The notes under the pieces were generated by a model. That model did not search any database. It saw only the letters and a program-made list of their open reading frames with translations, and was not told the DNA's origin. Of a stretch of 64,000 nt of DNA, positions 1,026 through 18,867 are shown in pieces. Source of the DNA: Escherichia coli (GTDB taxonomy: Bacteria > Pseudomonadota > Gammaproteobacteria > Enterobacterales > Enterobacteriaceae). The number at the start of each line of letters is the position of its first letter. Within the stretch, counting starts at the first letter, position 1. The stretch is from the NCBI RefSeq assembly GCF_001677475.2, contig NZ_CP015229.1; one strand, written 5' to 3'. The position numbers and the translations under genes were made by a program.

Positions 1026-2563
<1,538 letters not shown>

Positions 2564-2573
2564 AGGCTGAAAC

Positions 2574-3728
<1,155 letters not shown>

Positions 3729-7688: not shown

Positions 7689-9128
7689 ATGTCTATTGTG
7701 GTGAAAAATAACATTCATTGGGTGGGTCAACGTGACTGGGAAGTACGTGATTTTCACGGCACGGAATATAAAACGCTGCGCGGCAGCAGCTACAACAGCT
7801 ACCTCATCCGCGAAGAAAAAAACGTGCTGATCGACACCGTCGACCATAAATTCAGCCGCGAATTTGTGCAGAACCTGCGTAATGAAATCGATCTGGCGGA
7901 TATCGATTACATCGTGATTAACCATGCAGAAGAGGACCACGCCGGGGCGCTGACTGAACTGATGGCGCAAATTCCCGATACGCCGATCTACTGTACAGCC
8001 AACGCTATCGACTCGATAAATGGTCATCACCATCATCCGGAGTGGAATTTTAATGTGGTGAAAACTGGCGACACGCTGGATATCGGCAACGGCAAACAGC
8101 TCATTTTTGTCGAAACACCAATGCTGCACTGGCCGGACAGCATGATGACTTACCTGACAGGCGACGCGGTGCTGTTCAGTAACGATGCTTTCGGTCAGCA
8201 CTACTGCGACGAGCATCTGTTCAACGATGAAGTGGATCAGACCGAGCTTTTCGAGCAGTGCCAGCGTTACTACGCCAATATCCTGACGCCGTTCAGCCGC
8301 CTGGTAACGCCGAAAATTACCGAGATCCTGGGCTTTAACTTGCCAGTCGATATGATAGCGACCTCTCACGGCGTGGTATGGCGCGATAACCCGACGCAAA
8401 TTGTCGAGCTGTACCTGAAATGGGCGGCGGATTATCAGGAAGACAGAATCACCATTTTCTACGACACCATGTCGAATAATACCCGCATGATGGCTGACGC
8501 TATCGCCCAGGGGATCGCGGAAACCGACCCGCGCGTAGCGGTGAAAATTTTCAACGTCGCCCGAAGCGATAAAAACGAAATCCTGACCAATGTCTTCCGC
8601 TCAAAAGGCGTGCTGGTCGGCACTTCGACGATGAATAACGTGATGATGCCGAAAATCGCCGGGCTGGTGGAGGAGATGACCGGATTGCGCTTTCGTAATA
8701 AACGCGCCAGTGCTTTCGGCTCTCACGGCTGGAGCGGCGGTGCGGTGGATCGTCTTTCCACTCGCCTGCAGGATGCAGGTTTCGAAATGTCGCTTAGCCT
8801 GAAAGCCAAATGGCGACCGGATCAGGACGCTCTGGAGTTATGCCGTGAACACGGTCGTGAAATTGCCCGTCAATGGGCGCTTTCGCCGCTGCCGCAGAAC
8901 ACGGTGAATACGGTGGTTAAAGAAGAAACCTGTGCCACCACGACGGCTGACCTCGGCCCACGGATGCAATGCAGCGTCTGCCAGTGGATTTACGATCCGG
9001 CAAAAGGCGAGCCAATGCAGGACGTTGCGCCAGGAACGCCGTGGAGTGAAGTCCCGGATAACTTCCTGTGCCCGGAATGTTCACTCGGCAAAGACGTCTT
9101 TGACGAACTGGCATCGGAGGCAAAATGA
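7689..9128 (+). CDS. norV: Anaerobic nitric oxide reductase flavorubredoxin
   Basis: 479 aa ORF with metallo-beta-lactamase-like HxExDH motif, flavodoxin region and C-terminal rubredoxin CxxC...CxxC. Confidence 0.95.
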
Positions 9129-14737: not shown

Positions 14738-17628
<2,891 letters not shown>

Positions 17629-17635
17629 GTAACAT

Positions 17636-17718
17636 TGCCGGATGTGGCGTGAACGCCTTATCCGGCTTACATAGTTCGTGCGACATGTAGGCCCGATAAG
17701 CGCAGCGCATCGGGCAAT
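17636..17718. repeat. Pair of inverted REP elements at the 3-prime end of ascB
   Basis: gccggatgtggcgtgaacgccttatccggcttac and gtaggcccgataagcgcagcgcatcgggca; the minus ORF 17381..17710 is the REP translation artefact. Confidence 0.85.
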
Positions 17719-17741
17719 CTGGAGTTTGGCATCAGTCAAAA

Positions 17742-18161
17742 TCAAAGAAACCATTCCGGCTTAACGCCAAATCGGGCTGAAAGTGCCTTAATATGGGATA
17801 TTGTCAGGGATCGTTGCCCAGACAAAATCTGACTGACCAGGGATTTAGAGCCGATTTCGTTCTTCAAATCCGCGTAGGTCAGATTATGTTGATCAATCAG
17901 CGTACGAAGTAACGCCACGCCAACCGGCATTGCTGCAACGGCTTTGTCGAACTCTGCAAACTTTTCGTTATTGTTTTCATATTCTGCAATGCGGCTCGCC
18001 AGAAAGTCGATAAGTGGATTGGTGTCATCTTCTTCAATCAAATATTCGACCAGTTCCAGTGCTTCACGATAATCATCTTCTGAGTCACTGCCTCCCAGAA
18101 AGGGGACTGCATTGACCAGTTCTCTTGTTGCTTTAACAGCGCGTGCAGCATTAGCAGTCAT
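17742..18161 (-). CDS. HigA-like antitoxin / XRE-family HTH protein (no intact partner toxin)
   Basis: 139 aa ORF with ATG at 18159-18161; C-terminal HTH IGSKSLVSQILSGQRSLTISHIKALSARFGV and overall resemblance to E. coli HigA as recalled. Confidence 0.75.
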   Translation of the reverse strand: MTANAARAVKATRELVNAVPFLGGSDSEDDYREALELVEYLIEEDDTNPLIDFLASRIAEYENNNEKFAEFDKAVAAMPVGVALLRTLIDQHNLTYADLKNEIGSKSLVSQILSGQRSLTISHIKALSARFGVKPEWFL

Positions 18162-18396
18162 TCTTGGTTCTCTCTGTAGTATCGTGTCAGACGCCCACTT
18201 TTCTAAAATGCCAGTTTTGATCGGTATAATAAGGCATGGTCAGGAGAGGTTTCAGCGCCCGCTTTTGTGCGTATTCGCTGTCACTCATCGGCAGATATTC
18301 GGTAAAGCTGGTGGCCTACGCAGGAAGCACTAAGCTCAATAAAAAAGCGCACATCCCTGTCCTGATTTTCAATTCCCTGAATTCCTTAATGAAGAA

Positions 18397-18867
18397 CTAC
18401 TCTTCTTCCACCGCTAACTGCGCGAAGCCGCCATTCCCTTCCCAGCCTTCCAGTCGTTGATAAACGGTTTCTACCGCATCTTTAATCGGTTGGGTCATCG
18501 GATAGTAAAAGCCGACGATATCCGGCTGGATACCAAGGAAAATCACTTCGCCAATGTCTTCTTTTAACTGGTCGATAAGGTAATTCAACGGCATGTTATG
18601 GGTAGTCATCATAAACATCTCGGCGATGTCATCCGGGTCGATGATGCGGATCTCGCCGGGGTTTAGCCCCATATCCGTGGCGTCGACAATCAGTAACCGC
18701 GTAGGGCGCAGTTCACGGATGGCGACAATGTCGTTTTCCGGTGCGCTACCGCCGTCAATCACCACCCAATTACCTTTCGGCGCGGCGGCGCACTTTTCCG
18801 CCAGCAGCGGACCTGCGCCATCATCGCCCATCATGCTATTGCCAACACAGAGTAAAACGTCAGTCAC
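18397..18867 (-). CDS. hycI: Hydrogenase 3 maturation endopeptidase
   Basis: 156 aa ORF, last gene of the hyc operon. Confidence 0.95.
   Translation of the reverse strand: MTDVLLCVGNSMMGDDGAGPLLAEKCAAAPKGNWVVIDGGSAPENDIVAIRELRPTRLLIVDATDMGLNPGEIRIIDPDDIAEMFMMTTHNMPLNYLIDQLKEDIGEVIFLGIQPDIVGFYYPMTQPIKDAVETVYQRLEGWEGNGGFAQLAVEEE

Follow-up and report, generated by a model that had tools for sequence, protein, structure and literature searches.

The spacer between ascB and hycI in the 64-kb stretch of DNA analysed here (the whole of which we call the window) extends from position 17629 to 18396; ascB ends at 17628 and the stop codon of hycI, on the minus strand, occupies 18397–18399 in the ORF list. 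It is 768 bp long, compared with 158 bp in K-12 MG1655, where the two genes are neighbours as an earlier note on this DNA had stated. The spacer contains a pair of REP elements and an intact gene for a HigA-type protein, here called higA-2, and the 235 bp 5' of that gene are made up of the end of a higB gene, the start of a hypothetical gene and a short spacer that follows hycI (table 1).

Table 1. Features of the ascB-hycI spacer, in window coordinates
Feature	Position	Strand	Basis
REP element 1, hairpin GCCGGATGTGGCGT/ACGCCTTATCCGGC	about 17637..17669	+	inverted repeat I2; RNA fold hairpin; naRNA4 match below threshold; kept in K-12
Inter-REP spacer CATAGTTCGTGCGACATG, 18 nt	17670..17687		orientation reversed from that of K-12 and strain 2e
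REP element 2, opposite orientation	about 17688..17716	-	inverted repeat I1, pairs with REP element 1; fold hairpin
higA-2, orphan HigA-family antitoxin/HTH repressor gene, 139 aa, intact	17742..18161	-	ORF; Pfam HTH_3; similarity to K-12 HigA
Last 10 codons and stop of higB-2, stop overlapping the higA start (ATGA)	18158..18190	-	tblastn; alignment to full allele L002
ORF of 33 codons, Met23 of the remnant to TGA	18187..18288	-	ORF list; allele alignment
Deletion junction	18190..18191		allele alignments; 1032 bp missing relative to full allele
5' remnant (about 55 codons, including signal peptide) of the gene for a 251-aa secreted hypothetical protein; pseudogene	18191..18354	-	tblastn; PGAP
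TATAAT, allelic codon variant PYYT (versus PYDA) of the remnant	18225..18230	+
Nonsense mutation at remnant codon 13, CAG to TAG	18316..18318	-	allele alignment
Spacer of 42 nt from the hycI stop to the remnant start codon	18355..18396	-	without terminator; normal post-hycI spacer

The REP pair has the features of a REP/BIME element: imperfect palindromes of about 35 nt with a consensus of the GCCGGATG...CATCCGGC type, arranged in opposite orientation and with convergent genes on either side. The folded transcript of the region contains two stable hairpins (z = -2.6), K-12 has the same pair, and matches to the REP-derived Rfam family naRNA4 (naRNA4/REP325) occur at the pair below threshold only. 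The inverted-repeat search, the RNA fold and the conservation in K-12 all bear out the two inverted REPs that the earlier note had described. The 18 nt between the two elements are, with 1 mismatch, the reverse complement of the corresponding nucleotides of K-12 and strain 2e, evidently a small strain-polymorphic inversion flanked by the inverted REP arms.

The HigA-2 protein has a Pfam HTH_3 domain at its C-terminal residues 85–138 (E 7.9e-9), is 46% identical along its full length to K-12 HigA (YgjM), with 134 amino acids aligned (E 2e-45), and matches chain B of PDB entry 5IFG (E 2.5e-35); its description from the sequence as a 139-aa HigA-like HTH protein thus holds. It is 100% identical to WP_000126294.1, a protein that in strain 2e is paired with HigB; in that strain and in others its gene comes directly after a HigB gene (PF09907) and overlaps it by 4 nt (ATGA), the arrangement of a cognate pair. 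The partner protein, HigB-2, as encoded by the full allele, matches Pfam HigB_toxin (E 4.5e-23), is 39% identical to K-12 HigB and also matches the HigB chain of 5IFG. NCBIfam gives no usable match for HigA-2, HigB-2 or the 251-aa hypothetical protein, and our literature search found nothing specific on the hycI-higA locus or on WP_000126294. The window gene belongs among the HigA antitoxins of the K-12 type, in a paralogous, uncharacterised subfamily that we name HigBA-2, and its product would be a two-domain antitoxin and HTH repressor, with neutralisation of HigB and repression of higBA as its predicted activities.

The K-12 HigBA pair (ygjN-ygjM) consists of a RelE-type ribosome-dependent mRNA interferase and an HTH antitoxin, with the toxin gene first (PMC2814082; PDB 5IFG). 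HigBA-2 shares with it the two protein families, the toxin-first order, the two-domain antitoxin with its C-terminal HTH_3 and, in the full allele, the 4-nt ATGA overlap. It differs in its site, which is the hyc-asc junction rather than fadH-rlmG, and in its operator (below), and the window copy differs further in that toxin, promoter and operator have all been deleted.

Deletion junction and alleles of the locus

The fullest allele of the locus, that of strain 2e (L002), has the order hycI, a hypothetical gene of 251–253 codons, higB, higA, the REP pair and the convergent ascB. Relative to this allele the window lacks 1032 bp (L002 positions 2563–3594), which comprise codons 1–93 of higB, the higBA promoter and operator, and approximately codons 56–251 of the hypothetical gene. 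The allele alignments show that one illegitimate deletion of 1032 bp fused the hypothetical gene, at codon ~55, with the final 10 codons of higB. The junction is without microhomology, and the window-type junction is therefore taken to have had a single origin.

A permissive tblastn search finds residues 93–103 of HigB-2 at 18161–18193 (E 3e-5 in the region), the last 10 of which are true higB sequence, and no other HigB-like sequence, whether intact or frameshifted, in the 64-kb window. The earlier note had supposed a HigB/RelE-type toxin to be absent or degraded and had proposed a frameshift-tolerant search of the higA-hycI interval; by that search the toxin is absent, having been deleted rather than eroded, and the HigB C-terminus is the one match in the interval. 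The further statement that the 235 bp hold no ORF longer than 33 codons is right for the higA strand, on which 33 codons is indeed the maximum between higA and hycI. On the opposite strand two ORFs of 73–74 codons cross the interval and reach beyond it; we read these antisense ORFs as probably spurious. The window thus has neither the intact toxin gene nor the promoter with an antitoxin operator that a working type II toxin-antitoxin (TA) system possesses, and higA-2 is an orphan antitoxin gene: an intact ORF with no cognate toxin nearby and with demonstrable descent from a complete module.

We searched 5426 complete E. coli genomes for the genes of this locus. higA-2 is present in 2508 of them, always on the chromosome and in single copy, and is absent from K-12; higB-2 is present in 1092, once in each and solely at the hyc-asc chromosomal site. 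An orphan higA, scored as a match to at least 80% of the 768-bp query, is found in 1416 genomes (2508 minus 1092). These counts across the ascB-hycI junction, with the HigB partner at the same site, make the gene part of an islet, as had been suggested, and not a core gene. The exact window-type junction is present in 833 of the 5426 genomes, and by subtraction the remaining orphans should carry the independent deletion of higB and its promoter in which the hypothetical gene is intact. The alleles that we retrieved form a series: full (L002), higA with an intact hypothetical gene (L003, L012, L018), hypothetical gene only (L004), higBA without the hypothetical gene (L013, L016), the window-type deletion (L001, L007-L011, L017, L041-L046) and the K-12 scar (L006). 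A toxin-less higA like this one is frequent and rather unremarkable among E. coli strains, and the spacer as a whole is best described as a polymorphic locus in a decayed allelic state.

The view in the earlier note that the entire segment is extra DNA relative to K-12 needs to be divided. It applies to the higBA cassette, which by the allele alignments is a true insertion of 900 bp with TCAG at both borders; it does not apply to the hypothetical-gene part, which is ancestral, because this gene also lies after hycI on the same strand in Salmonella and, behind a SymE gene, in Klebsiella spallanzanii. In the K-12 spacer (L006:616-773) the hypothetical gene survives as a scar of 28 nt from its 3' end, and the K-12 deletion runs between two ACATCCC repeats; the seemingly "empty" K-12 site is itself a deletion derivative.

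Other arrangements occur at the same place. In K. spallanzanii (L037:2422-4814) the position 3' of hycI and of the hypothetical gene is taken up by a ParD/ParE pair and two SymE-toxin genes; in several genera, TA modules seem to find a landing pad at the hyc-asc junction. In four alleles from B2-type strains such as SE15 (L009, L010, L011 and L015) the asc operon is absent, and a gene for a 142–145-aa hypothetical/DUF4259 protein replaces ascB between hydN and higA.

Sequence constraint on the orphan higA-2

The window higA-2 differs from the E. coli alleles, including the paired gene, by 8–9 synonymous and 0 non-synonymous differences. Seven alleles with the same junction have 18 synonymous segregating sites and 1 non-synonymous one, distributed across the N-terminal and HTH halves of the gene. 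On the same haplotypes the 235-bp remnant has diverged by 1–8.5% per site, which is similar to the higA dS of 2–14%, against a higA dN of 0–0.3%; in those pairs whose remnants are at least 2% apart, 0–1 amino acid changes are seen in higA where 7–27 would be expected at the rate of the remnant. The gene is intact in all 12 of the 12 sampled same-junction alleles that were not picked for a defect. The sequence comparisons draw on 19 orphan alleles that were retrieved, the genome-wide set being known by summary identity bands.

Two observations bear on how these numbers should be read. The higA gene of L001, which has the window-type junction, differs at 1 site from that of the paired allele L002 and at 14 sites from that of the same-junction allele L009; since a same-junction gene may thus resemble a paired allele more closely than it does another same-junction gene, recombination has shuffled the locus, and some of the synonymous-only variation may predate the loss of the toxin. 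In strain GPEC102 the orphan higA (an allele picked for its low identity) is frameshifted by a 25-bp deletion, so loss of the orphan is tolerated. With the caveat of recombination, the orphan higA-2 appears to be under purifying selection.

Between positions 8000 and 30000 the window is at best 97.1% identical, over 22 kb, to any of the 5426 complete E. coli genomes, and it evidently comes from a divergent Escherichia lineage outside that set. This lineage and phylogroup-B2-type backgrounds such as SE15 have the window junction in common, and the allele is therefore not young.

These values have to be weighed against the simplest alternative, that the orphan higA is a functionless relic, silent or useless, which is intact through youth or through repair by recombination with paired alleles. 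The recombination signals and the frameshifted copy are compatible with a relic, as are the loss of the native promoter and operator, the weak ribosome-binding site with its lost translational coupling (below), and the fact that K-12 and about half of E. coli live without higA-2. A relic is, however, difficult to reconcile with a gene that has kept its amino acid sequence beside a remnant that has drifted and acquired a nonsense codon, with the uniformly intact copies among the alleles not picked for a defect, and with a junction too widely shared to be young, and we consider it rather unlikely. The locus is a clean, datable case of TA decay, in which the toxin was lost first, by one deletion, and the antitoxin gene has survived undamaged in hundreds of genomes beside a drifting remnant.

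Operator, expression and mobile relatives of HigBA-2

An alignment of HigBA-2 promoters from 17 loci (those of E. coli, one phage-plasmid, seven further named genera and two Enterobacteriaceae of less precise classification) reveals a conserved palindrome, GTTYACATAWTGTRAAC, that is the candidate operator. Two copies of it lie around the -35 and -10 regions in the other genera, and one copy is present in E. coli; the palindrome emerges from the cross-genus alignment, and the E. coli higBA-2 promoter alone has no strong inverted repeat with a 6-nt seed. Both this operator and the higBA promoter are inside the 1032-bp deleted segment, and a search of the 64-kb window for the operator motif, with up to 3 mismatches allowed, gave 0 matches. 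Promoter and cis target are therefore both gone from the orphan.

higA-2 lies on the same strand as hycI, and no terminator-like site was found in the hycI-higA interval. This, together with the apparent place of the hypothetical gene in the hyc transcription unit of relatives, leads us to infer that higA-2 is now the tail of the hyc operon, and its transcription by hyc read-through appears plausible. The higA leader folds no better than shuffled sequences and is thus unstructured. The ribosome-binding site of higA is weak. The remnant ORF, besides being interrupted at codon 13, ends 25 nt short of the higA start codon, so translational coupling is lost and translation would have to rely on the weak Shine-Dalgarno sequence.

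Relatives of HigBA-2 occur on mobile DNA, and this pool is the best lead to a function for the orphan. About 520 enterobacterial plasmids encode HigB and HigA at 60–80% identity, and further relatives are present in an Enterobacter phage-plasmid, in Cronobacter phage JK004 and in three viral contigs of 84–90 kb. The HigB and HigA proteins of the mobile modules (for example Enterobacter pJBIWA008_2, Cronobacter phage JK004 and large Klebsiella plasmids) are 75–79% identical to those of HigBA-2, their HTH domain is nearly identical to that of the window HigA, and the phage-plasmid promoter in the alignment (L019) has the same GTTYACATAWTGTAAAC operator. They differ from the window locus in that the mobile modules are complete, and in that L019 has two copies of the operator whereas the E. 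coli chromosomal cassette has one and the window none.

We favour the following account. The 1032-bp deletion took out the gene for the RelE-type toxin together with the higBA promoter and its HigA operator, and left the HigA-2 protein unchanged. With its own promoter gone, higA-2 would most likely be transcribed as the tail of the hyc (formate-hydrogenlyase) operon transcript and be translated from its weak native ribosome-binding site. More speculatively, HigA-2 may act in trans by binding GTTYACATAWTGTRAAC operators and sequestering HigB-2-type toxins; the target toxins would arrive on plasmids and on phage-plasmids of about 90 kb that carry a ~78%-identical HigBA with the same operator, and HigA-2 might then serve anti-addiction or immunity instead of belonging to a working TA switch. 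This overall reading, of a deletion-derived allele whose constrained orphan is driven from hyc and may act in trans against addiction, is in our judgement likely, its action in trans being the speculative part. Several points count against it. Antitoxins are often highly specific, which places the cross-neutralisation of a 78%-identical toxin by HigA-2 in doubt, and a HigA target site was not found in the window; the weak ribosome-binding site, the lost coupling, the recombination among alleles and the one frameshifted orphan also weigh on this side. A bolder form of the proposal, that the orphan HigA-2 is a selected, hyc-driven trans factor in the fermentative gut which disarms and represses incoming HigBA-2, or controls chromosomal genes with GTTYACATAWTGTRAAC, and which has long been kept in roughly a quarter of E. 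coli, must be called doubtful at present. If the constraint is real, the locus offers a convenient natural system for the anti-addiction idea, with candidate mobile targets and a candidate operator in hand.

HigA-2 might alternatively work with a resident system, whether the paralogous K-12-type HigBA (ygjNM, at fadH-rlmG) or some other chromosomal toxin, for which it would be a cross-regulator or a spare antitoxin. The two systems belong to one fold family, with the identities to the K-12 proteins given above (46% for HigA-2 and 39% for HigB-2), and B2 strains are reported to be without the toxin at fadH-rlmG too, so that HigA-type orphans accumulate (PMC7232551). Against this, the operators are wholly different (ATCCGTTGCCAATCTGGCAACGGAT in K-12, where palindromes 5' of higB form the presumed operator, and GTTTACATATTGTGAAC in HigBA-2), 46% identity is low for cross-neutralisation, and the permissive tblastn search finds no such toxin in the 64-kb window; we regard service to a paralogue as improbable.

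Type II antitoxins orphaned by the loss of their toxin have been proposed to act as anti-addiction modules or as trans regulators (PMC7354431; the anti-addiction idea also in PMC10790755), and orphan antitoxins are reported to be abundant in E. coli (PMC10790755). Among those described is an orphan higA at fadH-rlmG in the B2 strains CFT073 and NRG857c, from which the toxin has been lost (PMC7232551). Like these, the window higA is toxin-less, derives from a once-complete module and is common in E. coli, including B2-type backgrounds. It differs from them in that the deletion, its junction and the allelic series are resolved, in the position of the orphan behind the hyc operon, and in the sequence evidence of constraint. 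Within the HigBA-2 subfamily, loss of the toxin with retention of the antitoxin has happened in other species as well, namely Kluyvera georgiana and Serratia sp. DD3. In the former (L025:1819-3420) an 80%-identical HigA-2 homologue, without HigB, follows a 354-aa ORF with a Fic-like motif (FDGNKRTSR), which could be either a toxin swap or an unrelated neighbour.

The hypothetical gene and its remnant upstream of higA-2

The hypothetical gene belongs to a family of proteins of 250–270 amino acids that have an N-terminal signal-peptide-like segment and are encoded on the same strand 3' of hycI; intact members are found at L003:2104-2859, L004:1909-2664, L036:3001-3810 and L037:3001-3753. It is directly after hycI in Salmonella (26 nt) and in about 27% of E. 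coli, its start lying 26–42 nt after hycI in these hosts; in K. spallanzanii a SymE gene sits between the two. The 251-aa protein has no match in Pfam, and its AlphaFold2 model, built with 13 homologues, has a mean pLDDT of 38 and is too poor to classify. Its position would in effect make it one more, as yet unnamed, member of the hyc operon.

The remnant in the window is 83% identical to residues 1–66 of the intact protein (E 1e-30), in an alignment that passes the junction into higB-derived codons. In PGAP annotation, equivalent remnants are either partial pseudogenes or genes for a hypothetical protein of 61 aa. The TAG at codon 13 is found in the window only, being absent from the other 14 of the 15 alleles aligned. 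The TGA at 18187-18189 was considered as a second nonsense mutation and rejected, as it is an out-of-frame stop made by the fusion. The 33-codon ORF was likewise considered as a toxin relic and rejected, as it is an internal piece, from Met23, of the gene for the 251-aa secreted protein. That a working TA pair has been rebuilt with a new toxin encoded directly 5' of higA, by the 33-codon ORF or by the 61-codon ORF annotated elsewhere, would fit the short same-strand ORF in the position of a HigB-type toxin and the RefSeq 61-aa hypothetical protein of many strains, but the ORF comes from the gene for the 251-aa secreted protein, of which it covers the signal peptide and N-terminus, is cut by the codon 13 TAG in the window, evolves at a neutral rate and has no similarity to HigB or RelE, so that this is hardly credible. 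The annotation may thus be corrected at two places, the "hypothetical protein" 5' of higA being a gene fragment and the "empty" K-12 site a deletion scar.

The TATAAT that the earlier note had left unexplained is where it was placed and is now accounted for as an allelic variant of this coding sequence; the same variant is present in the intact hypothetical gene of strain 2017-02-2CC, and other alleles have CATCAT. Read on the minus strand, the site gives a -10-like TATTAT with CTGAAA 18 nt upstream. The 3 promoter-like sites found in the region, against 2.0 expected from shuffled sequences, are at the level of chance.

In some strains, among them Z1323CEC0015 (L001:2029-2226), an A-to-T change removes the stop at the junction, and the remnant ORF there reaches the old higB stop and overlaps the higA start once more. 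Three predicted proteins of 194–209 amino acids (P0035, P0038 and P0039) have an HTH domain, with about 20% of the query matching the remnant, and we read these as probable remnant-HigA fusions.
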